From sequence record PQ631072.1: DNA of 64,000 nt; one strand, written 5' to 3'. Origin of the DNA: Escherichia phage EC.P2. Positions within the stretch are counted from its first letter, which is position 1, and the number at the start of each line of letters is the position of its first letter. This document shows positions 16,902 through 64,000 of this stretch, piece by piece. The notes below the pieces were generated by a model. The model saw only the letters and a program-made list of their open reading frames with translations, ran no database searches and had not been told where the DNA came from. The translations under genes and the position numbers were made by a program.

Positions 16902-16903
16902 TT

Positions 16904-16926
16904 AAAAGGGGCGAAAGCCCCTTTAT
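16904..16926 (+). terminator. rho-independent terminator
   Basis: GGGGCGAAAGCCCC hairpin followed by TTTAT. Confidence 0.55.
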
Positions 16927-16941
16927 AAAAGGAGTAGTAAA

Positions 16942-18912
16942 GTGATTTTAACACGTCCAAATAGTGCCATTGCAGACATGGTAGAGTCTCGCTATAGAAA
17001 GCGTAGAAGTTTTGCAAGTGGTTTTACCTTAAGAGATGCTCGTGAAGCATTGCTCTTTGAAGCTGACGGTAACTACTATCAGTGGAAAGGTTCTCTACCT
17101 AAAGTTGTACCTGCTAACTCTACTCCTACATCCACTGGAGGGATTTCAGATACAGCTTGGAAAAATGTGGGTAATGCAGATGACATTGCTCAAATAGAAT
17201 CAGAATTAGATGCTATTGAAGCTGAAATTGAAGATCTTAGAGAATCCATCCCAGAAGCTGGTAAATCAGCTTACCAGATTGCCGTAGACAATGGTTTCCA
17301 AGGTACTGAGACACAGTGGTTGGCTTCTTTAAAAGGTGATCCAGGCGCTCCATTAAAGCTATTAGGGACACTATCTAATACCAACCAATTACCTACAAGT
17401 GGAAACAATGCAGGGGATGCATGGATTGTAGGCGAGAATATGTATGCTTGGGATGGTACTGCTTGGAGAAAAGTAAACTCACAGGGGCCAGAAGGTAAGT
17501 CTGCTTATGAAGTATGGCTTGCAGCAGGAAACCAAGGTACAGAACTAGACTATCTTGCTTCAATTAAAGGTGATAAAGGGGAGCCTGGCCCAGAGGGGCC
17601 ACAAGGTGTGCCAGGTAACAATGCTAATGGTTTTGATTACCAAGGCGCAGCTAATTCCGTTTCAGATCTTCCTTCTGCATCTCATGGAAACACATCTCAA
17701 GCATGGAGTGTTGGTACATATCTATACGTGTCAAACGGTGTAGAATGGATCAATATGGGCGCTATAGTGGGGCCAAAAGGAGATAAAGGCGACAAAGGAG
17801 ATAAGGGTAACACTGGTGATTCAGCTTATCAAGTCTGGTTAAATGCTGGTAACGTTGGTACTATTGACGAATATATTGCCTCTCTGAAAGGAGAAAAAGG
17901 TGATAAGGGAGACAAGGGTGATCAAGGTGCACAGGGTATACAAGGCTTGACGGGGCCAACTGGTGCAGGGTTGACCATTATTGACATTCTGACTAGCACT
18001 TCTGAACTGCCACAAACTGGGGAAGATGGTGATGGTTATCTGATCAATAGTGAACTTTGGGTCTGGTTGCAAGGAGCCACAGAGTGGACAAATGTTGGTC
18101 GTTTAGCTGGTACTCCAATCACTGCAAAAGGACACGTTGCGTCTGCAAGTGCGCTTCCTCCTACAGCCAATTACGGTGATGCTTATCTGACGGAAGATAC
18201 AGGTCATCTTTACATTTACACCTATAATGAACAAACTCAAACTGCTGAATATGTAGATATGGGTAGTTTGAAAGGTGATAAGGGTGAAAAAGGTGAGAAA
18301 GGTGACGCTGGTACTAACGGTACAGACGGTGCAACTTGGATTGTTAAAACAACAGATCCAATCTCTAGTGATGGTAAACAAGGTGATTATGCCTTTAATA
18401 TCTCCACTGGCGAGGTGTTCTTAAAAACATCTGCAACTGTCTGGACTTCTCAAGGTACACTACCTAGTATCACAGATGCACCTAGTGATGGTAAGACTTA
18501 TGCTCGTAAAGATGGGGCATGGGAAGAACTCACTAATTCTGTAGATGGTCAAGATATAGTTCCAACAAAAGTAACAACTAATTTTATAGAGGTTACAGCA
18601 TATACCAACAATTCTGTTACAGGGGACTGGACACCTCCAGGAACACATAACATGAATGTGTTGAATCTTACTGGTAACGCTACTATAAAAGCATGGCCTG
18701 GTGTCGAAGATAGTACAAAACCTAAACCATTCTCTGCAATAGTTTATCTTATCCAAGATGCCACTGGAGGTCGTACTGTTACTTTAGATCCATCTTACAA
18801 AGTAATTGGTTCCAGTGATATTAATACAGATCCTAACGGAGTAACAATACTACAACTAACATATTGTGGTGTTGGCGATTACGTGGATGCTATTGTTGCT
18901 AAACGCACATAA
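16942..18912 (+). CDS. tail fibre with collagen-like Gly-X-Y runs and phage-fibre repeats
   Basis: 656 aa, GTG start with AAAGGAG upstream; GDKGEPGPEGPQGVPG, GPKGDKGDKGDKGNTGD, GEKGDKGDKGDQGAQGIQGLTGPTGAG, GDKGEKGEKGDAGTNGTDG; three copies of SAYQ-W-AGN-GT-DYLASLKG units. Confidence 0.65.
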   Translation: MILTRPNSAIADMVESRYRKRRSFASGFTLRDAREALLFEADGNYYQWKGSLPKVVPANSTPTSTGGISDTAWKNVGNADDIAQIESELDAIEAEIEDLRESIPEAGKSAYQIAVDNGFQGTETQWLASLKGDPGAPLKLLGTLSNTNQLPTSGNNAGDAWIVGENMYAWDGTAWRKVNSQGPEGKSAYEVWLAAGNQGTELDYLASIKGDKGEPGPEGPQGVPGNNANGFDYQGAANSVSDLPSASHGNTSQAWSVGTYLYVSNGVEWINMGAIVGPKGDKGDKGDKGNTGDSAYQVWLNAGNVGTIDEYIASLKGEKGDKGDKGDQGAQGIQGLTGPTGAGLTIIDILTSTSELPQTGEDGDGYLINSELWVWLQGATEWTNVGRLAGTPITAKGHVASASALPPTANYGDAYLTEDTGHLYIYTYNEQTQTAEYVDMGSLKGDKGEKGEKGDAGTNGTDGATWIVKTTDPISSDGKQGDYAFNISTGEVFLKTSATVWTSQGTLPSITDAPSDGKTYARKDGAWEELTNSVDGQDIVPTKVTTNFIEVTAYTNNSVTGDWTPPGTHNMNVLNLTGNATIKAWPGVEDSTKPKPFSAIVYLIQDATGGRTVTLDPSYKVIGSSDINTDPNGVTILQLTYCGVGDYVDAIVAKRT

Positions 18913-18914
18913 TC

Positions 18915-18940
18915 AAAGCCCCTTCGGGGGCTTATTATTT
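18915..18940 (+). terminator. rho-independent terminator
   Basis: AGCCCCTTCGGGGGCT hairpin then TATTATTT. Confidence 0.55.
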
Positions 18941-18951
18941 AAGGAGATTAA

Positions 18952-21771
18952 ATGTATCCTATTCCTTTATTTATGTCAACAACATCAGCTTCAGTAGTAA
19001 CAGCTACATCTATAACCACTTCCTCTATTGGTATTGCAATAGTTGGTAGTAAAAAGCAACTGACATACACAGTTTCACCGGAAGATGGTGCGTTATTTGA
19101 TATAGCTTTTTCATCTTCAGATAATACCAAAATGGTTATAGATAATAACGGTATGATGGAGTTTGTTGCTGAAGGCGGTTTTGATGCAATAATGACAGCT
19201 AAAAATAATTTAGGTGCTGTCTTAACTGATCAATCTGGTGGCTATGCTTCAGAATTAAGTGTGTACACTGAAAGTCTGTCTGCTATGGATGCAGGAACTA
19301 CTCAACAATTGGTTGCTACAATCAGTCCAGAAGGTGCTAAAGACCTTCCAGACATGGTAATTACGTACACCACAACAGATCCAGAAGTAGCTACTGTAAG
19401 CCCTACAGGATTAATAACTGCTCTTAAAGATGGCAGTTGCCGTATAGGTTGTACTGCAACTTATCAAGGAACAGTGGTGGCCTCTGATAGTTCTTATTTA
19501 GGTGTTAATGCTATTCCTGTTATTTCTAATGTAACAGCCGTGGCAAACAGCTATGGAGACATTCGTGTTGCTTGGGATGTAGCTGATCCGCTAGATGGTG
19601 ATACTTATACTGTAGAAGTATTAGATTTAAGTAATAACAGTGTCCAGTGGACTACAACAACCACGAATACTTACGCCTACTTTGATATCTCTGACTCTAT
19701 TCCTCTTTATGGGTTTGCTCCAACATACCTTAAAATTAGCGTTAAGAGCACCAAAGCAGCAGCCGTTATCTTTAATAACTCAATAGCTACAGATGATTCA
19801 TTCATTAAAGAAGTTATTGTCTTTGCTGGACAAGATAACGTAAATGCACACTTTACAGAACTATCTGGTGCAAATAAAGCAGCAATGAGTAGCACAACAA
19901 CCCGTAACGCATATGCTACGCAACGTGGTTTAGCAAATGCTGAAGTTCTTCCGTTAAATACAGCTTCTGGATCATCAGCAGCAGATAAATATGCTGACGA
20001 TAAAGCTGGAACAGGTACACCAGACAACTACTGGTATGATCTGGATAACACAGCAGATGGGCCATGCTTAACTAATTTTATCACTAAAGTCACACCTTAT
20101 GCAAGTAAGGTTAAAGCAATTATTTGGGGACAAGGTGAAAATGATGCTGTATCAGCATCTTCAACTGTTGCAGGTAGGTACAGTAACACTACACGTTACC
20201 ATGATGCTACGATAGCCATCTTTGATAAGATGCGTACAATAGTTCCTGCTTCTCAAGCAAAAATTGTTTGGCAGATCCTAGGACGTTCTTATCTATATGG
20301 TGTAGAAGTTAATGGTGTAGATTGGCAGAAATACAGAAATGTACAAAGAACCATCTCTACAGCACGTGACGATGTTATCATTGGTTCTTGGGTAGATGGT
20401 GCTGAACGTTACAGTGGCTATGCTTATGAAGAAGGTATTGATGGTCGTATCCATTATATTTCTTCTGTATACCAGACAGCAGCTACAAAACTTGCTAAAT
20501 CAGCAGCAGACGGTACAGACCTAACATCAACGTCACCTGTTTGGGTTGATATGGCTGTTCCAACTGGAGCAACAGCTACTTCCCAGTCTAATCAAGATAC
20601 AATTTTAGCATGGGATGCTCAAGGTTATAGTAAACACTACTTCCGTAATATTAACGTCTTAACAGCATCTGTATTAACTGAACAAACGCTTAATACGAAC
20701 AGTTATACGTTTACCTATGCAGATCAAGTAGAACAATATGGTTTTGCAGCAGGTACTACGATATTTGATGTTGCATATTATGACGAAGCAAATGATGTGT
20801 TATCTCCTTTAGTACGTTTTAATGTTAGCGTTACAGCAGGAAAAGTAGAAGATAAACCTGTCGTGATGGACTATGATTTGACACAAGAAACTCTTCCATC
20901 AGATGTTAAGGTTAATGGTGGGAACTCTTTTGCTCGTGCTTCTGGAGATACACTTGTAGCCACTAACACCTTGGTTGCTCCGTTGGAGTATGTTGGCACT
21001 ACCCCTGTAGGTAGACGTGTAACAGCTAACACAGCTACACAAATTTTTGTCAACAACGCCTTAACAAGCGCAAGCCCGTGGGTAAAGACCAACTTAACTG
21101 TTGCATCTTCATCTGATAAATCTCCGGCTGGAACTACTGCTAATGTATTCAAATTAACTCCGACTACAACTTCTGGTAGTCATATCTTAACTGCAACATA
21201 TACTAACGCGTACAACATATCTGCCGGACGTAACTGGTCTGCCTCTGTTTTCTTGAAAGCGAACGGGATTACTAAGGCCAAACTAAGATTAAAAGCAGGG
21301 ACTGAAGTTAATGAAGGTACTTTTGATTTAGCAGCAGGTACATTCACAGGAAGTGAAGCTAATATTATATCTATGGGCAACGGTTGGTATCGTGCTATTC
21401 TGCATAAAACAGGAATAGCCAAACAGTCCTCCATAAGTTTTGAAATAATTGCCTTGGATGCAACTGGTGCGGAGATTTTCGCTGGAGATGGTACTAGTAA
21501 CCTTGCAGTTTGGTTGCCACAGCTTGAAGGTGCTTCTACAGGAGAAACATCAAAAGCTGGATCGCCTTATGTCTGCACATATCCTGGAAATTTAGGAGGA
21601 GTATCCTTCACTATACCAAGGAACGGACATACTGGTGTGGATGTTTACTATTCCAACGGAGACGTTGTTCGTGACGTATTCTCTGGTACGGCATCTACTT
21701 GGACAATAAACTACTCCAGCTTGTACGATTGGGGATCAGTCTTTATTACAGGTTTGAAATATTACGACTAA
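18952..21771 (+). CDS. tail fibre / receptor-binding protein with Big_2-like and SASA (sialate O-acetylesterase)-like domains
   Basis: 939 aa; Big_2-like segment (ATVSPTGLITALKDGSCRIGCTATYQG); esterase-like motifs VIVFAGQDN and AIIWGQGENDA (GQSN / QGExD pattern). Confidence 0.5.
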   Translation: MYPIPLFMSTTSASVVTATSITTSSIGIAIVGSKKQLTYTVSPEDGALFDIAFSSSDNTKMVIDNNGMMEFVAEGGFDAIMTAKNNLGAVLTDQSGGYASELSVYTESLSAMDAGTTQQLVATISPEGAKDLPDMVITYTTTDPEVATVSPTGLITALKDGSCRIGCTATYQGTVVASDSSYLGVNAIPVISNVTAVANSYGDIRVAWDVADPLDGDTYTVEVLDLSNNSVQWTTTTTNTYAYFDISDSIPLYGFAPTYLKISVKSTKAAAVIFNNSIATDDSFIKEVIVFAGQDNVNAHFTELSGANKAAMSSTTTRNAYATQRGLANAEVLPLNTASGSSAADKYADDKAGTGTPDNYWYDLDNTADGPCLTNFITKVTPYASKVKAIIWGQGENDAVSASSTVAGRYSNTTRYHDATIAIFDKMRTIVPASQAKIVWQILGRSYLYGVEVNGVDWQKYRNVQRTISTARDDVIIGSWVDGAERYSGYAYEEGIDGRIHYISSVYQTAATKLAKSAADGTDLTSTSPVWVDMAVPTGATATSQSNQDTILAWDAQGYSKHYFRNINVLTASVLTEQTLNTNSYTFTYADQVEQYGFAAGTTIFDVAYYDEANDVLSPLVRFNVSVTAGKVEDKPVVMDYDLTQETLPSDVKVNGGNSFARASGDTLVATNTLVAPLEYVGTTPVGRRVTANTATQIFVNNALTSASPWVKTNLTVASSSDKSPAGTTANVFKLTPTTTSGSHILTATYTNAYNISAGRNWSASVFLKANGITKAKLRLKAGTEVNEGTFDLAAGTFTGSEANIISMGNGWYRAILHKTGIAKQSSISFEIIALDATGAEIFAGDGTSNLAVWLPQLEGASTGETSKAGSPYVCTYPGNLGGVSFTIPRNGHTGVDVYYSNGDVVRDVFSGTASTWTINYSSLYDWGSVFITGLKYYD

Positions 21772-42574: not shown

Positions 42575-43291
42575 TTATTTCAGTTTGTAAACAATTACAT
42601 TTAAACCTTTGTTCACTAGAGTTTCTTCGATCATAAGTTTTACAATATTCCAAGAACCTCCAGCCAAACCACAACCAAGCATTGGTAAACCTACAATTTT
42701 ACCGCCTGAAGATACAACATCGTCTCCCATACTATCTAACGCATTGTAGATAGCTTCATAATTCAGGTCACGCTTACCTTCCTCACGACGACTATAACCA
42801 TATTGTCCATATAAATTATAAATTGTCAAATTGTTTTCTGTATACTTAGTAAACGTACCTAATTTTTTATAATCACCACGTTTAGTGGCACAATCTGCTT
42901 TAAACGCACCAGGCCACTTGCTTTTAATTTTTGGTGCAATACCACTACCCATAGTGCAAAAACAGTTACAGCAGTGTGCTATAGCGTCTATATCGCCTCT
43001 CTCTGCTGCTGCTAAAAGATCACCGTATACCTCAATGATACCTGGTGGATAACTTGTTACAATCTCATCTTCCCAGTACATTTGCTCTACACCACCGATC
43101 AGTGCAAAGTTTTGTGTGATGCGATCATCAATATAATTAAGACCTGAAACATACACAGCATATTCATCCTGTGCTGTAATGCCTTGTACACGAATTCTTA
43201 AGACACCATCTTTATCTGTTGCTACACGCCCAAAATCTTTTTCTGTAATATTGGTGATAGGATCTCCGAAAGTCGTCACTTTATTAGACAT
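42575..43291 (-). CDS. macro-domain protein (TARG1/OARD1/DarG-like ADP-ribose hydrolase fold) with N-terminal extra domain
   Basis: Track start is TTG at 43408 inside PRTase gene; ATG at 43291 (MSNKVTTFG) overlaps PRTase stop by 8 nt. C-terminal half AHCCNCFCTMGSGIAPKIKSKWP ... LPMLGCGLAGGSWNIVKLMIEETL ... VIVYKL parallels TARG1 (AHCISEDCRMGAGIA ... [24 protein letters not shown] ... ITVYTL). Confidence 0.7.
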   Translation of the reverse strand: MSNKVTTFGDPITNITEKDFGRVATDKDGVLRIRVQGITAQDEYAVYVSGLNYIDDRITQNFALIGGVEQMYWEDEIVTSYPPGIIEVYGDLLAAAERGDIDAIAHCCNCFCTMGSGIAPKIKSKWPGAFKADCATKRGDYKKLGTFTKYTENNLTIYNLYGQYGYSRREEGKRDLNYEAIYNALDSMGDDVVSSGGKIVGLPMLGCGLAGGSWNIVKLMIEETLVNKGLNVIVYKLK

Positions 43292-44141
43292 AATAATCCC
43301 CTTTAACATTAGATTTGTTGATAATGTTGCTTTCAAAAAATTGACGCAGGAAATCAAAGTTCTCTTTGTATTTTTCAATATTATTGTAACCTTCTGCAAG
43401 GCAACCAAAGAACAGTTGTTCTACATAATACAAAGGAAGTTGTGAAAGTGCAATTTTAAAATCAACTTCGCTTTGACTCATTAGATACTTAATAGGACGA
43501 ACCAAACATTTAGCATCAGTTTCTTGCTTAATCATTTTAATAAAAGCTGCCAGGTTATTGATATAGTTGAAGTTAAGTGCAGCTTCGGTGTTGGCTTCTG
43601 TACCTTCATACTTTGCAAAGTACAGGAAAAACGTATCGTTTTCAACACCTTCTTTGTCTAAAATTTCAATAAGTTTTTCTTCGTGTGTTCCTGTAATATT
43701 AACATCATCAATGAAAATCAGAGTTTTATTACCCCAGAAATCACGATTGATAGAGAAAGTGTCACCATCGATCAAAGCCTTACGATCTTCTTTGCTAAGA
43801 AATCCATAATCATTGATATAACTCACTTTACGATGAACGATATCCCACTCTACTGCTTTACCTCCTTTGATAGAGATTAGGTAGTTGAGGTGATCTACAA
43901 AATGTTCAGATAACACTGTAGCTGCATTTTTCACATAGTTATATGGAGATGGAATAACAACAAAACTTTCATTTACTAGTCGTTCTTCATATTTAGAAAA
44001 GAAACTTTCAGCTAGAATGCGTCCCATTCTTTTTGCTGCCTGGTTACTACCAAACTTTAGTTTGGAATAATCTGCAATGTTAAATTTTGCTTCCTTCAGG
44101 TTAGTAAAAGTATTAGCAAAATGTTGAATTTGATTACGCAT
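43284..44141 (-). CDS. phosphoribosyltransferase (type I PRTase fold)
   Basis: 285 aa; PRPP-binding motif TLIFIDDVNITGTHEE; ATG with AGAGGA RBS; stop/start overlaps with both neighbours. Confidence 0.65.
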   Translation of the reverse strand: MRNQIQHFANTFTNLKEAKFNIADYSKLKFGSNQAAKRMGRILAESFFSKYEERLVNESFVVIPSPYNYVKNAATVLSEHFVDHLNYLISIKGGKAVEWDIVHRKVSYINDYGFLSKEDRKALIDGDTFSINRDFWGNKTLIFIDDVNITGTHEEKLIEILDKEGVENDTFFLYFAKYEGTEANTEAALNFNYINNLAAFIKMIKQETDAKCLVRPIKYLMSQSEVDFKIALSQLPLYYVEQLFFGCLAEGYNNIEKYKENFDFLRQFFESNIINKSNVKGDYYV

Positions 44142-44790
44142 TAATAAGTTCCTCTTTTTTAAGTTTAGCCAACAAGTCTTCTGGATTAATAATATGACAG
44201 AACTTCATCCCTATGTCAACAGCTTTTCCATCATAAATCAAACTATCTCCAACGTGTAAAATCTCCTCTGGTGCGAGATCAAACGTTACCATTTCATCAA
44301 AAGAGAGTTTAAAAAACCTAGGATCTGGTTTACACAAGCAAAACTCATCAGAAAAATGCATAAAGTCAAATGGTAATTTTGTTAAGCCAGAATATACAGC
44401 TAAGAAACTACCTGGTACAAAATTAGTATTGCTCTTAATACTCAAAGAATAGGTTGAACTTAGCTCTTCCAACTTCTTGCAAAGCTCAGGGTTCAATATT
44501 GGAGGATGTTTTATAAACATTGCTAAACAGTCTCTTTTTAACCCATCTACTTTATCAAGATCAATGTTCAAACGAGCAGAGAGTGTTTCCCAAGCATTCC
44601 TAGACGTTCCACAAATGCCTTTTTCTGCTTTTAAATCCAGGAGAGTTTTTACCTCTTTATATACGGTAGCTGCTTCTGCTTCAGAACAAGAGGCATACTC
44701 GGCAATAACCTTGTTGCGTTCTTCTGCATACAAAGGATTAGCAGTAATAAGAGTATTCCATACATCAAAAGAAATATGCTTAACAGTCAT
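44134..44790 (-). CDS. HAD-superfamily phosphatase
   Basis: Track start TTG at 44808; ATG at 44790 with GGAGGA RBS gives MTVKHISFDVWNTL (HAD motif I DxxxT); later HVGDSLIYDGKA (motif IV-like). Confidence 0.6.
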   Translation of the reverse strand: MTVKHISFDVWNTLITANPLYAEERNKVIAEYASCSEAEAATVYKEVKTLLDLKAEKGICGTSRNAWETLSARLNIDLDKVDGLKRDCLAMFIKHPPILNPELCKKLEELSSTYSLSIKSNTNFVPGSFLAVYSGLTKLPFDFMHFSDEFCLCKPDPRFFKLSFDEMVTFDLAPEEILHVGDSLIYDGKAVDIGMKFCHIINPEDLLAKLKKEELINA

Positions 44791-44792
44791 TT

Positions 44793-44948
44793 TTAATCCT
44801 CCGTCCAAAAGAATATCATCTGCTTAATTTTATTGATCTCTTGATGTAGTAACTTTCCAGCATGTGATTGATCTTTAATATTGACAGCAAGAATTTCAAG
44901 CTCCGTTAGTTTTTCCTGGATAGCTTTATATTCATCATCTGTAAGCAT
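44793..44948 (-). CDS. hypothetical small protein (below ORF-track cutoff)
   Basis: 51-codon ORF found by hand (MLTDDEYKAIQEKLTELEIL...); weak RBS; stop overlaps HAD RBS. Confidence 0.3.
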   Translation of the reverse strand: MLTDDEYKAIQEKLTELEILAVNIKDQSHAGKLLHQEINKIKQMIFFWTED

Positions 44949-44959
44949 TTTCTTCCCCT

Positions 44960-45163
44960 TTAGAATGGTAATCTTTGTATGTCACTTAGCCCCACACCCA
45001 GAAGTCTAGCAATATCCTTATCTAAAAGCAACTCTTTTTGTTCTAAAATGTTAATCAAATCTCCTAATACTTCTTTAATGTCACGATCATTTTTAGCAAC
45101 GTGACCACCTGCGGTATCAACTTTATCTTTAAAAACAAAATAATGATCCATAATACCCTCCAT
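44960..45163 (-). CDS. hypothetical small protein
   Basis: 67 aa ORF after terminator hairpin. Confidence 0.4.
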   Translation of the reverse strand: MEGIMDHYFVFKDKVDTAGGHVAKNDRDIKEVLGDLINILEQKELLLDKDIARLLGVGLSDIQRLPF

Positions 45164-45170
45164 ATAAATA

Positions 45171-45192
45171 AAGGAGGCTTTCGCCTCCTTTT
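45171..45192 (-). terminator. rho-independent terminator after AAA+ ATPase gene
   Basis: AAAGGAGGCTTTCGCCTCCTTTT; T-run on minus strand. Confidence 0.6.
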
Positions 45193-45197
45193 ATCAC

Positions 45198-46358
45198 TTA
45201 GTAAGAACGACCACCAAACACATACTCTGTGTAGTTTTTACGTTCTTTGTTTTTAATAACAACTTCAATGTTGTTACCTTTATCATCGGTGAACATAAAG
45301 TGATAACCGTCACCACCCATTGTACGAATGTGTTTTTCATCATACGTTAGCAAGATACGGTCTACACCCCAGTAGTAGTCACCTTCTTCATCTTTATCTT
45401 CCACAGTAACGATCCCTTCCATTTCAGGAAGATGCTCTTCTCCTGACTTATGATCTACAGCTACAACATAACGATTACCGCTAAACAAACCTTGTGCTGT
45501 CATACCGTCAATATCGGTATCTGACGAAACATCTCCTGTACGATCTACACCGTTAACTTTCAGAAGTTTAACTTCTTTTGCAGCATAGCGGTGTTCAGTA
45601 ATACTGATACCCATTAATGCAAGTGCATCAGAGAATTTGTCATTAGGGTAACGGTTAAGTTCTTCTACTAATGACTGAACAATATCAAAGTTCAAGTCCA
45701 CGGAAAGATTATAAAGCGTTTCAAAATCTGGCAAGAAGGCTTTGTTCTCCAGATTTTTAGCCAGATAATCATCCATAGTAGCTTTAGGTAGTTTCTTATA
45801 GCTAAAACTGTAGAAAATACGGCTAGGACGATTACGCAAAAATTCTGATACATAACCATCATTTTTAGTCAATACAAACAGCTTGTCATAACCACCAACA
45901 CCATCCAGCAGGGTAAGCAAACCATCTTGTGCATCTTTTTCAGCATACAGTTTATCAAATTCATCGATCATAATCATCACAGGTTGTGTGATTTTAGACA
46001 TAAAATTGATAAAGCCTTCACCATTAAAAGCACTACCGATAGAAATAGTAGGAATACCCATTTCACGAAGAGCAGAAGACAGCATTTTAGCTTGCAAAGT
46101 TTTACCGCTACCTTTCGTACCCTCAAGGAGAACACCTGTGTTTTTACCTTTGCGGCTAAGGAACGTCTTGATAATACGTTCTGATTTATCATCAGTATCA
46201 CCGTATGTTACTGAAGGGACTTCCATATCATTTTTAGGATACAGGAAGAACTCACCACTTTGAGTAACACCTACACCAAAAGTTCCTGCTGGGATTTCTT
46301 CAATATCTGTACCAGATTTCTGACGCAGGAAGATTTGATTGCCGAATACTGTAAACAT
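45198..46358 (-). CDS. AAA+/P-loop ATPase (paralogue A)
   Basis: 386 aa; Walker A GTKGSGKT, Walker B IMIDEFDK; clear paralogue of 61376..62503. Confidence 0.65.
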   Translation of the reverse strand: MFTVFGNQIFLRQKSGTDIEEIPAGTFGVGVTQSGEFFLYPKNDMEVPSVTYGDTDDKSERIIKTFLSRKGKNTGVLLEGTKGSGKTLQAKMLSSALREMGIPTISIGSAFNGEGFINFMSKITQPVMIMIDEFDKLYAEKDAQDGLLTLLDGVGGYDKLFVLTKNDGYVSEFLRNRPSRIFYSFSYKKLPKATMDDYLAKNLENKAFLPDFETLYNLSVDLNFDIVQSLVEELNRYPNDKFSDALALMGISITEHRYAAKEVKLLKVNGVDRTGDVSSDTDIDGMTAQGLFSGNRYVVAVDHKSGEEHLPEMEGIVTVEDKDEEGDYYWGVDRILLTYDEKHIRTMGGDGYHFMFTDDKGNNIEVVIKNKERKNYTEYVFGGRSY

Positions 46359-46378: not shown

Positions 46379-46849
46379 TTAGTCAGATTCCCAAATGTTG
46401 TCTTTCTTAACCCACATTCGTTGATTATCTGAACCTCTATAACGTTTCGTTGTTGGTTGATTCATATCATACTTACCATCTATCACTATGTCAACCAGTT
46501 TTTTAATTTTCTCTGGAATTTCTTCAAAAAGATATCCTGTATATAAGACAATATCTTTTTTGTTTCCAAAACAATCTCTTACCTTCTCAAGAACATACTC
46601 TACAGTGTCAATGTTCTCTTTGTCAAGAGGTTCACCACCTAAAACTGTTAATCCTTTAATGAAAGGTCGAGATAAATCTTCCAAGATAAGATCTAATGTT
46701 TCAGTAGTGAACTCTTGTCCGTAGTTATACGACCAGGCTTTCTGGTTAAAGCAGCCACGGCAACCGTGGCTACAACCGCTCACCCACAAAGAGCATCTTA
46801 CACCGTCACCGTTGAGCATGTCAACAGGTTCATATCCGGCGTAATTCAA
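46379..46849 (-). CDS. nrdG: anaerobic ribonucleotide reductase activating protein NrdG
   Basis: 156 aa; N-terminus MNYAGYEPVDMLNGDGVRCSLWVSGCSHGCRGCFN closely parallels E. coli NrdG; TTG start overlapping NrdD stop (TTGA) with AGGGAGA RBS. Confidence 0.85.
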   Translation of the reverse strand: MNYAGYEPVDMLNGDGVRCSLWVSGCSHGCRGCFNQKAWSYNYGQEFTTETLDLILEDLSRPFIKGLTVLGGEPLDKENIDTVEYVLEKVRDCFGNKKDIVLYTGYLFEEIPEKIKKLVDIVIDGKYDMNQPTTKRYRGSDNQRMWVKKDNIWESD

Positions 46850-50970: not shown

Positions 50971-50980
50971 TTTAACCCCC

Positions 50981-53755
50981 TTAGTTTACCAGTTTATTTA
51001 TATCTGGTAAAAGATTTATTTCACCTAAGAAATCACCTTCACCTTCCTCTAGCCAACTCTCATATGCTTGTGCATGATTATAGTTACCATCAAAAGAATC
51101 TGCAACAAATTTTTCTACAGTTTTTCGAGATGTACCAGCACCAAATACACCAAGTTTAATACTATTGATCGGTAAAGTAGGGCTTGTGGGTACTTTCTCT
51201 GTTGCAACACGGTTGATATCTATAATCTCCTGTACGGTTGTGTTCCATTGTAAGCATTTAACACAACGGGTATGCGCTACATACAGTAGGTTTCGCTCTG
51301 CCTCTTCTAGTCCTACCCATTCACCAGTCTTTTTATCATAGTTGGAAGGAAAATCATTAGCAACAATAACCTGATCCCACTCCAAACCTTTAGACTTGTG
51401 TGCTGTAGTCAGTGTGACTTTTGCTGTAGGAGAGTTTCTATGCGTTCTAAGTGTATGTGCTATAGTATTTGCCTTACCAGAAACTACAATGTTTAACAAG
51501 CGTTTAGCATCTGGATCAGCCTCTGCACACTCAACAAATTCATTCCAGTCTGCGTAAGGTAATACAGTTTCATGTTTTACTTTCTCAATATCTCCTCTCC
51601 GAAGAGCATTAACACTATCTACCATAGAGATAAAATCCCTGGTATCTACGTTAATAATAATTTCTTCCCCATCTGCAATACGATCCATTGCCTCCATAAG
51701 CAAGGTTAAATTCTTGCGAAAGATGATAGTGTAAGGTTTTGTATAGTCTACAACATCTGATTTGTAGCTACCTACTACAGTATCAAAGCCTTTACCAACC
51801 AAAGGATGACGCAAAGGTTCTTTATCACTTAAAATCATATTCGCAATGTTTGCCACTTTGGGGCCAAAACGGAAGCAAGCAGTTAATGGAAGCTCTGCCC
51901 CATACTTAGCTGTTTCAATCATCATATTAGAGCTACCTCTAAATTGATAAATGCAGTTGTGGCTAAGAATTTCATTACCAAAGAAGTTAGCAGTATCCTC
52001 TACTTCGATATCATAATAGATACCCTCACTATCTACAATGTCCACAATTTCTTCTGCCGTTACAGTATCACCATCTTTTACCAATACAGACATGCCTTTA
52101 AACAAACCCGCTGCCGGAATTAAATTATATTTGGCGGTGTTCACAGAGGACATGCATTCTTTTAAAGATGCAAACGGAACTATTTCAAGGATCTTTTGTG
52201 CAAAACTCAATGCTTCACGATAAGAGTTGAAATATTTACGTACACGGTAACGACCTTCCAATTTAGCAACACTCACGCTTACACCTGCTTCAATGAGTGA
52301 AGCATAGATTGGCATTTCACTTTCTGTCCACTCAAAGCTAACTTGTGTTCCTTTACAACTTTGTGCTCGCAAAGTCACTGTTAACATTTTTCTTTCATCT
52401 ACTGCACAATTGATGCTGTGCCAGTGTGGATAAGCAAAATGATAATCTTTATCCTCTAAAAGTTTAAAACCATTTTGTCCGAATTGTTCAAAGATGTTGT
52501 TGATTCTTTCTTGATTAATACCGCGTGAACTTGCCTCAAATACACAAGTAGGAATGCCATATTGTAAACTGTATGCCATTTCTTTTTCCATAGCAGCTTC
52601 ACGGTTTTCAACAATATCCAACACCCATAACTTCTGTGCTTTTTCAGAACGTGTACGTTGCCCCAGTTTAGAAAAACCTTCTTTATCATCGAATTTGTTA
52701 GTGATCCCTACTCGGAAGCCTAAATCTTTTCTCCACATTAGGTATACCACCATCTGATCATCTTTCAGAACATAAGGTGAAGCCCAAATACGATGGTTAT
52801 GTGTCATATCTAAAGTCTTACCTTTAGCAGTAATAACATTCCTACCTTTTGTACGTGTAGATAAAGTCTTATTTGTTACTTTTCTAAATGTAACTTTACC
52901 GTTAGAATAAGACTCTACCTTATCACCTATTTGCAGGTCTTTCATTGTAACCTGACCATTTTCGGTATTAAGTACCGTGTTTTCTGACACACATTGGAAT
53001 TCATCACCAACTACCACAATTTGTTTTGCAGATTTAGCATTCCGCAGAATAGACAAGAATGCAGGGTTAACATCCTGGAATTCATCCCCAAAGATAATGT
53101 CATAACCAAGATCAGCACCTGATAACTCAAACAATTTTACATAGGTGTCGTGCGTCATCAAAGTATCTGTGTTAGGGTCAATGCGCTCTCGCCACAATTG
53201 TTTTGCATACTTAACTACTTCTGTAATTAGTTTGTGTTCGTTAATACCTTTTCTTTTAATATCTGCAAGATGTACACCAGGAAAATGTTTACGGCTGATA
53301 AAAGGATCATCCGAAAATTCAAACTTACCTACGGTTTGCTTGATCATTAAACCAATCATAGCACGAGTTAAAAGTGTTTTCCCTCGTTTATCAATAAGAT
53401 TATTAATCTTAAATTTCTTTGCTATCTCACTACCTGTACCTGCAACGTTAACATACTGTCCTTCTGGTCGTGACAGTTTTGCACGTAAACGATGATCCAG
53501 GAATTGATAGCAAATGGAATGCAATGTACGGCATTCTACATTTGGTGGCATCTTACGCCGTGCTTCTTCTGCCATGCTTTTATTGAAAGCTAAGTAAAGA
53601 ATGCGATCTTCTGTACTGTTAGCCAGCAAATAAAGTGTTGACGTTTTTCCTGATCCAGATTTAGCTTGGATAGTTAAAAACCGATGATCTGGAAAAGCCT
53701 CCTTAATAGCTGTTTGCTCTTCTGTTGGAGTAAAACTCAACTCTTTCTTAGCCAT
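50981..53755 (-). CDS. superfamily 1 DNA helicase (UvrD/PcrA-like) interrupted by an intein
   Basis: Walker A TIQAKSGSGKTSTL, motif II DEFQD, motif III split as VVVGDEFQ / CIYQFRGS around a 346-aa insert; ATG at 53755 (MAKKELSF, AGAGAGG RBS) preferred over track TTG 53794. Confidence 0.75.
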   Translation of the reverse strand: MAKKELSFTPTEEQTAIKEAFPDHRFLTIQAKSGSGKTSTLYLLANSTEDRILYLAFNKSMAEEARRKMPPNVECRTLHSICYQFLDHRLRAKLSRPEGQYVNVAGTGSEIAKKFKINNLIDKRGKTLLTRAMIGLMIKQTVGKFEFSDDPFISRKHFPGVHLADIKRKGINEHKLITEVVKYAKQLWRERIDPNTDTLMTHDTYVKLFELSGADLGYDIIFGDEFQDVNPAFLSILRNAKSAKQIVVVGDEFQCVSENTVLNTENGQVTMKDLQIGDKVESYSNGKVTFRKVTNKTLSTRTKGRNVITAKGKTLDMTHNHRIWASPYVLKDDQMVVYLMWRKDLGFRVGITNKFDDKEGFSKLGQRTRSEKAQKLWVLDIVENREAAMEKEMAYSLQYGIPTCVFEASSRGINQERINNIFEQFGQNGFKLLEDKDYHFAYPHWHSINCAVDERKMLTVTLRAQSCKGTQVSFEWTESEMPIYASLIEAGVSVSVAKLEGRYRVRKYFNSYREALSFAQKILEIVPFASLKECMSSVNTAKYNLIPAAGLFKGMSVLVKDGDTVTAEEIVDIVDSEGIYYDIEVEDTANFFGNEILSHNCIYQFRGSSNMMIETAKYGAELPLTACFRFGPKVANIANMILSDKEPLRHPLVGKGFDTVVGSYKSDVVDYTKPYTIIFRKNLTLLMEAMDRIADGEEIIINVDTRDFISMVDSVNALRRGDIEKVKHETVLPYADWNEFVECAEADPDAKRLLNIVVSGKANTIAHTLRTHRNSPTAKVTLTTAHKSKGLEWDQVIVANDFPSNYDKKTGEWVGLEEAERNLLYVAHTRCVKCLQWNTTVQEIIDINRVATEKVPTSPTLPINSIKLGVFGAGTSRKTVEKFVADSFDGNYNHAQAYESWLEEGEGDFLGEINLLPDINKLVN
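51956..52993 (-). mobile_element. intein within helicase motif III
   Basis: Insert begins with Cys (CVSENTVLNTENG...), ends ...GNEILSHN, followed by Cys+1 (CIYQFRGS); 346 aa, large enough to include a homing endonuclease domain (not identified). Confidence 0.7.
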
Positions 53756-61375: not shown

Positions 61376-62503
61376 ATGAAATACACGATTTATGGTGATA
61401 TTGTAAGTGTAAATAAAGATATGGGTGTGGAATCTAATTATCTTCCACCTGGATTCTATACTGTTAGTCGTGATCCCCTTGGCAATTATTTTTTAAGCCG
61501 TGGTAATCTAACAGGTGTACCGGATGTTCTGTATGGTGAAACAGAAAAACGAGCAAATCACGTTATCCGTACATTCCATCGCCGGAGTGCACAAGGTAAA
61601 AATACAGGTTTGCTTCTGACAGGAACTAAGGGCAGTGGTAAAACTATGTTAGCCAAGCTCATTAGTCGTGACCTTGTAGAAGAAGGTATTCCAACTATTA
61701 TGGTTACTCAAGCCTACAGTGATGCTAATTTCATTGAACTTATTAGCAAGATCACCGACAAAGCAGTGATTATTTTTGACGAGTTTGATAAAGTATATGA
61801 GAAGAAACAAGATCAAGAAGCACTTCTCACTTTGTTAGATGGTACTGGCAGTGGTAATAAACTGTTTATTCTAACTAAAAACAGTGGCTTTATCTCTGAA
61901 TTCTTTCTAAATCGTCCTAGTCGTGTGTTTTATAATTTTAATTATGATAAAATCTCACTAGAAACTATGATTGACTATTTAGATAAAAACCTGGATAACA
62001 AAGCACACTTTGATAATTTCCAAAGACTTTGGGATGTAAGTTTAGAGTTGTCCTTTGATGTGATCCAAGGTATAGTAGAAGAACTTAATTTCTACCCTGA
62101 TTTATCCTTTAAAGAATGCATCTCTATGATGGGCGTTTCTTTGGGTGGTGGTAATAAATGGGATATCAGTAGCGTTATTATTAATGGAAAACTTCAGAAA
62201 GTTAGCTGGGTATCTAGTTGGCATAACTTTACACCTGCAATCTTTTTAGGTGGCTCGTGCACACTAGACGTGTACTTGTCATCTCCAAGTGATGCAGATT
62301 CTAAAGAAGCCCTTGCTAATAGCTCTTACGTGGTTTTTGATGATGAAGGCGATGCTCGAATTCCGTTGAATGCGACAAAAATGAAAGCAGACCTTATCAC
62401 AGGCGGTAAAATCGTTGTGTTTAGTGATGATCCAGAAGATTCTTTCCGTATTGTTCTGGAACCAACTATCACCAATGGTGCAACTTTGGCAAGTGTGTTT
62501 TAA
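61376..62503 (+). CDS. AAA+/P-loop ATPase (paralogue B)
   Basis: 375 aa; Walker A GTKGSGKT, Walker B IIFDEFDK; shares many blocks with 45198..46358 (e.g. LLTLLDG, LTKN-G, FL-NRPSR). Confidence 0.65.
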   Translation: MKYTIYGDIVSVNKDMGVESNYLPPGFYTVSRDPLGNYFLSRGNLTGVPDVLYGETEKRANHVIRTFHRRSAQGKNTGLLLTGTKGSGKTMLAKLISRDLVEEGIPTIMVTQAYSDANFIELISKITDKAVIIFDEFDKVYEKKQDQEALLTLLDGTGSGNKLFILTKNSGFISEFFLNRPSRVFYNFNYDKISLETMIDYLDKNLDNKAHFDNFQRLWDVSLELSFDVIQGIVEELNFYPDLSFKECISMMGVSLGGGNKWDISSVIINGKLQKVSWVSSWHNFTPAIFLGGSCTLDVYLSSPSDADSKEALANSSYVVFDDEGDARIPLNATKMKADLITGGKIVVFSDDPEDSFRIVLEPTITNGATLASVF

Positions 62504-62516
62504 GTAAGCCAGCAAA

Positions 62517-62543
62517 TAAAAACCCGCTTCGGCGGGTTTTCTT
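62517..62543 (+). terminator. rho-independent terminator
   Basis: AAAAACCCGCTTCGGCGGGTTTTCTTG. Confidence 0.7.
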
Positions 62544-62577: not shown

Positions 62578-63750
62578 ATGGTAGCACTAAAATCATGGGA
62601 ACAATATAAAGAAGAATTAATACCCCTTGCTAAAAATCACAATATTCAAATCTTGGGTTATGTTGGTGAATGGAAAGGGAACAAGACTAAACTTAAGCTA
62701 TCTTGCCCTAAACATGGAGAGTGGAACACCACGAACATTAATGATTTTAAGAAGGGACGTGGTTGTCCTATCTGTTCTGGTAAGAAGCCGTTAACATGGG
62801 AAACAGAATTGCCGATCTTGGAAGAGATAGCACAGAAGAGGGGGTATCAGGTGTTAGGGTACGTGGGAGAATGGAAAGGGAATAAAACAAAACTTGATTT
62901 GTTGTGTCATTGTGGTAATAAATGGGATACTACAAGTATTAACAATTTTAAACGTGGTAGCGGTTGTCCACAATGTAAGAGGGAGAGACAAACAATGTCC
63001 GACGATCAACATATTGCAGATTTCTTTTCTACAGGGGAATTTAAGGAAGGCACTATCTTCACCAATACAGGGAAACGTAACAAGCGTGATGCAGTATGGA
63101 TGGTTGAGTGTCCTGTTTGCTCCCATGATGAATATGTTCAAGCAGGTGTTTGTGATGGTAAATTTTACTCTGCAGGACATAACCTTAAACAAGGGTATAT
63201 TCCGTGTCGTTGTGGGAACTATCAGTATACAGAAGACCAGATCACCTATAGGGTAAAAAAGGAAGTAGAAGGGAAAGGGTATGTCTGGGTAGATTGGATT
63301 ACCAAACCCTCTTCTATAGGTAAGTTTAAATATCTTTGTCTTGTGCATGGTGAGCAGATAGGGAGTGCTCGTAATTTATTAAGCCTCGGTCAAGGTTGTC
63401 CACAGTGTGCTGGTCATAATCAACAGCAATTATATATTAATATTGTTAAAGATAATGATATTATAGTTGCTCTTAAGTTTGGTATATCTAAAGATAGCGA
63501 TAGACGATTAAACGGTCAAAATAGCCGTAATCTGTTTTTTATGGAGCGTATTTGTTTATATGATTTTAGCACAGTGAAACAATGTAGGGCTGCTGAAAGA
63601 GCTATAAAGAAAAAATTAAAAACTGGTATTTTAACGGCAAGAGAGTTGAAAGATGGTTATACAGAAACAGTAAGTGTTTCTGATTTGGAAAATCTTCAAA
63701 AAATTATTACACAATATGGTGGCAAATTAGTATACAGTAAGGAGATGTAA
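62578..63750 (+). CDS. Zn-ribbon-repeat protein with C-terminal GIY-YIG-like (T5orf172-type) domain; homing-endonuclease-like
   Basis: 390 aa; two near-identical modules (ILGYVGEWKGNKTKLKLSCPKHGEWNTTNINDFKKGRGCPICSGKK / VLGYVGEWKGNKTKLDLLCHCGNKWDTTSINNFKRGSGCPQCKRER), further CxxC pairs, then YINIVKDNDIIVALKFGISKDSDRRL. Confidence 0.5.
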   Translation: MVALKSWEQYKEELIPLAKNHNIQILGYVGEWKGNKTKLKLSCPKHGEWNTTNINDFKKGRGCPICSGKKPLTWETELPILEEIAQKRGYQVLGYVGEWKGNKTKLDLLCHCGNKWDTTSINNFKRGSGCPQCKRERQTMSDDQHIADFFSTGEFKEGTIFTNTGKRNKRDAVWMVECPVCSHDEYVQAGVCDGKFYSAGHNLKQGYIPCRCGNYQYTEDQITYRVKKEVEGKGYVWVDWITKPSSIGKFKYLCLVHGEQIGSARNLLSLGQGCPQCAGHNQQQLYINIVKDNDIIVALKFGISKDSDRRLNGQNSRNLFFMERICLYDFSTVKQCRAAERAIKKKLKTGILTARELKDGYTETVSVSDLENLQKIITQYGGKLVYSKEM

Positions 63751-64000
63751 ATGCGGATTACTGATAAGTATGTGTTCTTCTTCTCGGCAAAAGATGAATT
63801 TAGCAACTGGTATCTATCATCTTTTATTGAACCTTTAGCTCCCAAGTATAATAATTCTATTACAAGTTCTGTTGAATTTACTTGTGTGGAACAATATATG
63901 ATGTGGAGAAAAGCATGTTTGTTTTATGATTACAACATTGCATCTTCTATTTTAACCGGAGATCTAAGATATACAGGAGAAAAAGAACAGGCATATTATA
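63751..64000 (+). CDS. NADAR (YbiA-like) domain protein, 5' partial (runs off window)
   Basis: ATG at 63751 directly after previous stop; VFFFSAKDEFSNWYLSSF ... VEQYMMWRKACLF matches NADAR signature. Confidence 0.6.
   Translation, partial: MRITDKYVFFFSAKDEFSNWYLSSFIEPLAPKYNNSITSSVEFTCVEQYMMWRKACLFYDYNIASSILTGDLRYTGEKEQAYY

Follow-up and report, generated by a model that had tools for sequence, protein, structure and literature searches.

Introduction

Why does a phage genome hold two related, clearly diverged AAA+ ATPase genes on opposite strands, and do both matter to the phage? The question arises in a 64,000-nucleotide stretch of Escherichia phage EC.P2 (sequence record PQ631072.1), called the window below, where a forward-strand gene (paralog A) and a reverse-strand gene about 15 kb away (paralog B) were read in an initial annotation as duplicated, diverged ATPases that might reflect sub-functionalisation or a recombination scar. 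By comparing the two proteins with each other, with their protein family and with the genomes of related phages, we arrive at a reading that we consider likely: A and B are paralogs that diverged long ago within one family of AAA ATPases with a single module, A being the core copy and B an extra one, and both would serve to remodel protein clients.

Results

Two diverged members of one phage ATPase family

The two genes, each preceded by a good purine-rich ribosome-binding site, are as follows (aa, amino acids; ORF, open reading frame).

61376..62503, + strand: paralog A, AAA ATPase of 375 aa, ORF with ATG start, family phrog_2376
45198..46358, - strand: paralog B, AAA ATPase of 386 aa, ORF with ATG start, family phrog_2376

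A BLASTP comparison aligns residues 3-256 of A with residues 2-253 of B, a stretch that takes in the N-terminal domain, all of the AAA core and the lid, with 119 identities in 254 positions (47%), 70% positives, one two-residue gap, a score of 242 bits and an E-value of 1e-81. The pair are genuine diverged paralogs, as the initial annotation had supposed: the six motifs that it quoted (GTKGSGKT, DEFDK, LLTLLDG, LTKN.G..SEF, NRPSR.FY and DYL.KNL.NKA) all occur in both proteins in the same order, and the likeness, running from residue 2-3 through the lid, is not confined to P-loop motifs. Identity is highest in the AAA core (58%), followed by the lid (45%), the linker helix (33%), the N-terminal domain (28%) and the C-terminal domain (14%). 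The C-terminal stretches of about 120 residues do not align pairwise (14-16% identity); B nevertheless aligns over about 370 residues to proteins of the A clade (39% identity to P0002 and 46% to P0025), and because these intermediates bridge them, the C-terminal parts of A and B are still homologous. This domain evolves fast in both lineages, with identity falling from 73% in the N-terminal part to 49% in the C-terminal part between A and its ortholog in phage phAPEC8, and from 87% to 48% between B and P0033.

Both proteins match the phrog_2376 profile from end to end (A, E = 1e-107, positions 1-357 of 363; B, E = 3.5e-104, positions 2-359 of 363). The PHROG entry is labelled 'ATPase', with no function given, and the only Pfam domain in either protein is the generic AAA domain PF00004, at 38.9 bits in A and 29.4 bits in B (gathering cut-off 21.2). 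NCBIfam and the PADLOC defence models return only sub-threshold matches to A and B at the level of the P-loop. When the family profile was run against 1.84 billion representative proteins, it matched 3,325 clusters (formed at 50% identity) at E ≤ 1e-30 and 4,224 at E ≤ 1e-10; most of the matches listed are proteins of 350-400 aa that cover nearly the whole profile. The family is thus large and mostly phage-borne, chiefly in big virulent phages, and its cultured carriers include Stephanstirmvirinae, the jumbo phages CBB, GAP32, Atu_ph07 and ME3, many Herelleviridae, and phages of Aeromonas, Proteus, Acinetobacter and the Salmonella 7-11 type. Chromosomal members also exist: in eight Lachnospiraceae loci the gene stands singly between leuCD and a low-molecular-weight phosphatase gene, and in Streptomyces chromosomes (L142-L164) it adjoins a gene for a 938-aa UvrD-like helicase and a ClpB-like fragment. 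The Lactobacillus phage Lpa804 (Herelleviridae, MG557979.1) gives two tblastn places for the family, and extra copies may therefore have arisen independently elsewhere.

The DNA of A is 100% identical in the phages ECGD1, vB_EcoM_PHB05, JohannJBalmer (BASEL Bas62) and EC_OE_11, that of B is 99.6% identical to Enterobacteria phage ECGD1, and both genes are intact, with 98-100% DNA identity, across about 54 genomes. Phage vB_EcoM_PHB05 is classified in the genus Justusliebigvirus (phi92-like) of the Stephanstirmvirinae, and the window is part of a Justusliebigvirus genome. The genes already carry an 'ATPase' annotation in about 55 GenBank records, and other labels in use are 'putative ATPase or Zn metalloprotease', 'FtsH-like protease' and 'hypothetical protein'. 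We reject the FtsH-like label, FtsH being the source of both the metalloprotease and the protease wording: unlike FtsH, A and B have no transmembrane region, no HExxH motif and no match to the M41 peptidase domain (Peptidase_M41) at E-values up to 1. In phi92 itself (FR775895.2 / NC_023693.1), where gene 190 is the ortholog of B, a 'hypothetical tRNA' is annotated overlapping the B gene; ARAGORN finds no tRNA in the whole 64-kb window, and the overlapping tRNA is likewise rejected. Four records labelled as Campylobacter jejuni phages carry both ATPase genes, among them MG065639.1 and MG065689.1 ('Campylobacter phage A150 / A110a'), whose two proteins are 98-99.7% identical to those of the E. 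coli phages; their host label looks doubtful.

Domain architecture and conserved residues

An AlphaFold2 model of A was built on 106 homologs, and secondary structure was assigned with DSSP. The model (predicted local distance difference test score, pLDDT, 90.7; predicted template modelling score 0.77) comprises five short strands (residues 3-43), a long helix (56-72), an alpha/beta AAA core (77-190), a four-helix lid (195-252) and a beta-rich C-terminal domain (262-363). The domains map to the window as follows.

61376..61540, + strand: N-terminal small beta domain of A, aa 1-55; five modelled strands, pLDDT about 90
61601..61951, + strand: AAA core of A, aa 76-192; invariant motifs, aligns to the D2 module of p97
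61952..62143, + strand: helical lid of A, aa 193-256; four modelled helices, with F227, D228 and N238 invariant
62144..62500, + strand: C-terminal beta-rich domain of A, aa 257-375; fast evolving

The N-terminal domain has family-conserved residues at G7, P24, L40, Y53 and G54 (A numbering). The Walker A motif GTKGSGKT is common to both proteins (G83-T90 in A), and Walker B reads IIFDE in A and IMIDE in B. Invariant in all 106 sequences, those of the B clade included, are G83, G86, K89, D135, E136, K139, Q147, the D155-G156 pair of 'LLTLLDG', the sensor-1 residue N169, and R180 and R183 of 'NRP[GS]R'. Judged by these residues, which include all the catalytic and inter-subunit positions of the family, A and B both look catalytically competent. 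In a profile alignment the family motif N-x-P-[FWY]-x-G sits on the 'MWFG' pore loop of p97. At position 114, that of pore loop 1, 92 of the 106 members have an aromatic residue (Y in A, F in B), and the loop itself reads A-F-N-G in B and A-Y-S-D in A. The segment between beta2 and alpha2 is about five residues shorter than in p97; a reading of this short segment as a lack of pore loop 1 was withdrawn after the p97 profile alignment and the column counts. The lid holds no arginine that is conserved family-wide, R239 (82%), at the C-terminal end of a lid helix, being lost in the A clade. Such a lack is expected of classical AAA proteins.

Among solved structures the best profile matches are p97/Cdc48, VAT, AFG2 and NVL/Rix7 (E = 1e-12 to 1e-8), followed by Bcs1 (1e-7). 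With p97, Cdc48 and VAT the two proteins share the Walker A and B motifs, the 'LLT.LDG' motif of helix 3, the sensor-1 asparagine, the double-arginine motif 'RP[GS]R' (NRPSR falling on the p97 'LRPGR') and the aromatic residue at the pore-loop-1 position. They differ from p97 in having one AAA module, about 180 aa long, against the two of p97, in an identity of about 15-18%, in an unrelated N-terminal domain and in an extra C-terminal beta domain, for which no solved structural relative was found in the Protein Data Bank (PDB). Full-length structural matches do occur in diverse phages (TM scores of 0.6-0.77 over about 390 columns). The Trip13/Pch2-like ATPase of type III CBASS (PDB 6p8v) shows 13% identity to A and B; it is a regulator of host defence, whereas A and B are phage genes with no HORMA or CD-NTase partner nearby. 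As to the AAA+ clade of the pair, which the initial annotation had proposed to establish by profile and structure, PF00004, the p97-type best match and the double arginine all point to the classical AAA clade, but the AlphaFold2 model of A has no helix between beta2 (107-110) and alpha2 (117-125), where a short inserted helix is typical of that clade.

At near-invariant sites of the family, the A clade (including its orthologs in the genus Phapecoctavirus) carries the clade-wide substitutions R62H, N111T, G116D and R239F/A, whereas B retains R62, G116 and R239 and has changes of its own (L92Q, N111G and P287A). Because the clade-wide substitutions fall in A, B stands nearer to the family consensus and A is the more derived at conserved sites. 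The suggested sub-functionalisation is compatible with this pattern, in which divergence lies mostly in the putative client-binding N- and C-terminal domains and in clade-fixed changes at family-invariant sites, and A and B probably serve different clients. For the split into remodelling and anti-defence that the initial annotation had in mind, the PADLOC and NCBIfam searches offer just the sub-threshold matches given above.

A core copy and an accessory copy

Orthologs of A with 64-67% identity are present in Phapecoctavirus (phAPEC8, ESCO5, ESCO13 and others), in phAPEC8 at the syntenic site. A is accordingly the core copy of the Stephanstirmvirinae, present in both genera at one syntenic site. 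The features downstream of A are the following.

62519..62540, + strand: hairpin resembling an intrinsic terminator, 15 nt past the A stop; 9-bp GC-rich stem, UUCG loop, T-run
62578..63750, + strand: 390-aa 'endonuclease' with three CapR stretches (PF21817, E = 3e-43) and a T5orf172 domain (PF10544)
63751..64000, + strand: start of a NADAR (YbiA-like) gene, two genes after A, continuing past the window end

An identical hairpin follows the phAPEC8 ortholog of A (listed counterpart site, L004 35162-35181). The gene that had been noticed beside A as homing-endonuclease-like is indeed endonuclease-like, with three CapR zinc-ribbon repeats and a T5orf172 domain; its conserved position next to A in phAPEC8 shows that it is no recent mobile insertion. 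In the NADAR gene, 82 of the 83 codons within the window match the vB_EcoM_PHB05 gene, which at full length hits PF08719 with E = 3.4e-36.

B is surrounded by the following genes and features.

46379..46849, - strand: nrdG (anaerobic ribonucleotide reductase activase), directly upstream of B; 69% to phAPEC8 gp045
45170..45191, - strand: hairpin resembling an intrinsic terminator, 6 nt past the B stop; 9-bp stem, GAAA loop, T-rich tail
44960..45163, - strand: 67-aa gene directly downstream of B, homolog of phAPEC8 gp046 (tblastn 49%, E = 2e-17)
44134..44808, - strand: HAD hydrolase (Pfam), downstream of B
43284..44141, - strand: PRTase_3, ComF-like (Pfam), downstream of B
42575..43291, - strand: Macro-domain protein (Pfam), downstream of B

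TerC, TelA, vWA-TerF and TerD follow farther on. B is absent from the syntenic site in phAPEC8, and Phapecoctavirus genomes give a single tblastn place, that of the A ortholog. The gene order of phAPEC8 is nrdD-nrdG-gp046-gp047-HAD-PRTase, that of the window nrdD-nrdG-B-(gp046 homolog)-HAD-PRTase_3; because nrdG and gp046 are adjacent in phAPEC8 and the 67-aa gene marks the point, B represents an insertion or a deletion at one precise junction. Two tblastn places per genome are found in Justusliebigvirus and in the Klebsiella phages phi1_175008 and FKP3 (A-type about 74% identity, B-type 71-76%), and B-type copies occur in 54 Justusliebigvirus records and in five further records at 60-80% identity.

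The record of phage 92CQ (PV682554.1, 'complete', 129.8 kb, Justusliebigvirus-like) keeps A and lacks one contiguous block that comprises the Ter genes, Macro, PRTase, HAD, B, nrdG and nrdD; if it is correct, B is dispensable for growth. At the junction (L172 about 16900-19500) a glycosyltransferase gene adjoins a longer 'ribonucleotide reductase' ORF and overlaps with it. B is thus an accessory gene, restricted to Justusliebigvirus and one lineage of Klebsiella phages and dispensable in relatives; the comparison with related genomes that the initial annotation had proposed, to see whether one copy is accessory, shows it absent from the phAPEC8 site and from 92CQ.

The B ortholog of L016 (74% protein identity) is followed at the same place (6475-6494) by a hairpin with a different stem and the same GAAA loop, so that the hairpin after B is conserved in structure and not in sequence. 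Because a terminator-like hairpin follows each gene, A and B are each predicted to end a transcription unit, and on this evidence B would go with nrdDG and would not head the HAD/PRTase/Ter operon; some read-through is possible. B had been placed at the head of the Ter/PRTase region; physically it does stand there, but a terminator hairpin intervenes and in Phapecoctavirus the cluster exists without B.

Origin of the second copy

A neighbour-joining tree of 120 sequences (251 columns left after trimming, from the N-terminal and AAA parts; 100 bootstraps) supports the A clade together with P0022/23 at 100%, the B clade at 100%, and B together with G368 at 70%, while an exclusive grouping of A and B appears in 0 of the 100 bootstraps. 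G368 is an uncultured group of 368-aa proteins on 154-kb contigs, with no cultured representative, and its closest relative among phage records is B (46%). Both genes have the average GC content of the genome (37-38%).

For a recent duplication within the genome, or a recombination scar with no functional meaning, there is one point in favour, namely the presence of two homologous genes at a distance of 15 kb and in opposite directions. At 47% protein identity, however, their DNA is alike only over 238 nt (68%), and no exact match exceeds 16 nt; both copies stay intact and almost unchanged across about 54 genomes, all catalytic residues are kept, B has its own orthologs at 71-76% in Klebsiella phages, and the tree never pairs A exclusively with B. 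Because the DNA likeness is so small and the tree so consistent, B is neither a recent duplicate nor a substrate or scar of homologous recombination, and this part of the initial annotation, to which we now give hardly any credence, did not hold up. B originated either by an old duplication followed by loss in Phapecoctavirus or by transfer from another phage.

Discussion

A proposed role as client remodellers

In the mechanism that we propose, A and B would assemble as ATP-driven ring oligomers, inter-subunit catalysis being indicated by the conserved arginine fingers; the rings would grip a protein client and remodel or unfold it, and the choice of client or partner would fall to the fast-evolving N- and C-terminal domains. 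Several observations weigh against this reading or parts of it. The pore-loop glycine is an aspartate (G116D) throughout the A clade, and the beta2-alpha2 helix is missing from the model of A. The tree, built from distances over 251 columns, gives B with G368 just 70% support, and the 92CQ record could contain an assembly gap instead of a true deletion. A literature search found no study of A, B or any family member, and we infer oligomeric state, ATPase activity and clients from sequence and modelling.

Other roles can be set against client remodelling. Some GenBank annotations imply that the two proteins are accessory ATPases of DNA replication, such as a helicase loader, a clamp-loader-like protein or an Hda-like regulator, and weak matches to Hda (TIGR03420, E = 4e-7), to DnaC-like PRK08116 (2e-6) and to the clamp-loader and DnaC-like PHROG families (1e-8 to 1e-6) go in that direction, as do the place of B in a block of nucleotide metabolism and replication after nrdDG and the conserved UvrD-like helicase neighbour in Streptomyces. 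Yet those matches fall far under the curated cut-offs (29.8 against 194.8 bits for TIGR03420, 27.5 against 189 for PRK08116) and are exceeded by the p97-type classical AAA profiles; the family carries the double-arginine NRP[GS]R typical of classical AAA proteins and conserves an aromatic residue in the pore loop, with no family-wide lid (sensor-2) arginine and R239 lost in the A clade, and A lies among small early-type genes outside the replication module. We regard a replication role as improbable. A role as BCS1-like chaperones or translocases in membrane-proximal virion assembly is suggested by the jumbo phages, all three groups of which encode BCS1-like AAA+ proteins for which such a function has been proposed (Iyer et al. 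2021, PMC7824862), and by the presence of our family in CBB, GAP32, ME3 and Atu_ph07. Unlike Bcs1, A and B have no membrane anchor or transmembrane segment and no Bcs1-specific N domain (no Bcs1_N Pfam match), and they do have a C-terminal domain; the Bcs1 match is weaker than that to p97 (1e-7 against 1e-12) and does not extend beyond the AAA module. In CBB another AAA protein of a different kind, matching A at only E = 6.5e-9, shows that more than one AAA family is present there, the jumbo 'BCS1 orthologs' may belong to a family other than phrog_2376, and neither A nor B lies within a structural module, all of which makes this role quite improbable.

A further alternative concerns B, which could be a dedicated part of the Ter/PRTase/HAD (Ter-system) module, A having a role of its own. 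B and its 74% orthologs (L015 and L016, which keep the same HAD-PRTase_3-Macro order) always stand directly upstream of the 67-aa gene and the HAD to Macro series, and in 92CQ the whole block, B included, is missing together. Against this, the HAD/PRTase_3/TerC/TelA cluster of Phapecoctavirus (phAPEC8) has no B, the structure-conserved hairpin separates B from the cluster, and the homolog in ME3 is not beside the ME3 Ter system; we doubt this explanation as much as a part in replication.

Neighbourhoods with NAD+ and ADP-ribose genes

Around the wider family, genes of NAD+ and ADP-ribose metabolism recur. We fetched 80 IMG/VR loci, called ORFs, clustered the neighbours and assigned them to Pfam families; 75 of the loci carry a family member, and in 17 of these a Macro, NAMPT or NMNAT-Nudix gene lies within 6 kb of it. 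The commonest neighbour families are Macro (15-17 loci), NAMPT (10-11) and NMNAT-Nudix (8), and metallophosphatase, GDSL hydrolase and CMD/AhpD proteins are also frequent. NAMPT is mostly immediately upstream of the family member on the same strand, and eight loci have the ATPase directly after NAMPT with NMNAT-Nudix and Macro just upstream, an arrangement like NARP2. In the same environmental clade, recurrent neighbours also include an unknown pair of genes for 727 and 272 aa and, ahead of GDSL and CMD genes, an unknown gene for 107 aa. NARP3 (PnuC + NadR) was considered and found unrelated to the ATPase-NAMPT cluster. In Atu_ph07 (a 490-kb Agrobacterium phage; L090 3929-5739), the homolog is followed immediately by a gene for a ClpP proteolytic subunit, from which at least one family member might work with a peptidase; three genes past the homolog lies a gene annotated as COG3236, which we take to be the YbiA/NADAR group.

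These neighbourhoods could mean that the family is tied to phage NAD+/ADP-ribose islands, A being linked to NADAR and B to Macro, PRTase and HAD, as two client-specific versions, in which case the ATPase would remodel or disassemble a host factor, for instance an immune complex based on an NADase or on ADP-ribosylation, or else chaperone the phage's own NAD+ and ADP-ribose enzymes. The 17 of 75 loci compare with a background of about 1.1% of phage genomes for NARP2 (NAMPT + NMNAT) in a preprint on NARP1/2 that mentions no ATPase (10.1101/2024.02.11.579819). In the window NADAR follows two genes after A, and HAD, PRTase_3 and Macro follow B; in ME3 the gene right after the homolog encodes a Nudix 'ADP-ribose pyrophosphatase', and Salmonella phage 7-11 has a phosphoribosyl pyrophosphate synthetase about 3 kb away. 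On the other side, the NAMPT-linked ATPases are 50-86% identical and form one broad clade, so that shared descent explains much of the count. Many lineages lack such neighbours, namely L002 and CBB, Bcp1, Lb338-1 and Aeromonas 4_4572, the last four having only hypothetical neighbours, and the chromosomal homologs keep the other company described above. The terminators part A and B from the NAD+/ADP-ribose genes, accessory genes cluster in phage genomes anyway, and there is no significant PADLOC or anti-defence match, the best PADLOC model being mad8 (E = 9e-4, 16.9 bits). A tie of this kind is in our view unlikely. Unlikely, too, is its extension, that the family is a counter-defence or host-takeover remodeller travelling with NAMPT, NMNAT-Nudix, Macro, NADAR and PRTase, whose variable N- and C-terminal domains target host factors, for instance immune complexes that are oligomeric NADases or that ADP-ribosylate; phi92-like phages would then hold two versions with different clients, one (A) close to NADAR and the other (B) close to Macro and PRTase.

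Significance of the pair and its family

Paralogous accessory genes are common in large phages. The A/B pair is real but fairly ordinary, consisting of uncharacterised members of a known superfamily, and the gene pair alone carries little weight. The family weighs somewhat more: its clusters number in the thousands, its big virulent carriers include two groups of therapeutic phages, Stephanstirmvirinae and Herelleviridae, and its conserved three-domain architecture joins a small N-terminal beta domain and a classical-type AAA module to a C-terminal beta domain that lacks a solved relative. For the favoured reading of A and B as core and extra client remodellers, phi92-like phages offer a natural experiment, in which a core and a dispensable copy share one genome and differ in their putative client-binding domains; genomes naturally without B exist. 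Were the NAD+/ADP-ribose link true, this family would bring an ATP-driven remodeller into the toolkit that phages deploy around NAD-centred immunity.

The region between the two genes

Between A and B lies a UvrD/Rep helicase gene, at about 50980-53755 on the - strand of the window, the position being taken from the annotation of MZ501084.1 (L003 19273-22047). In JohannJBalmer the UvrD/Rep helicase gene is annotated as intein-containing and is 2,775 nt long, compared with 1,593 nt in phAPEC8 and 1,737 nt in 92CQ, which suggests that the helicase intein is present in some genomes and absent from others.

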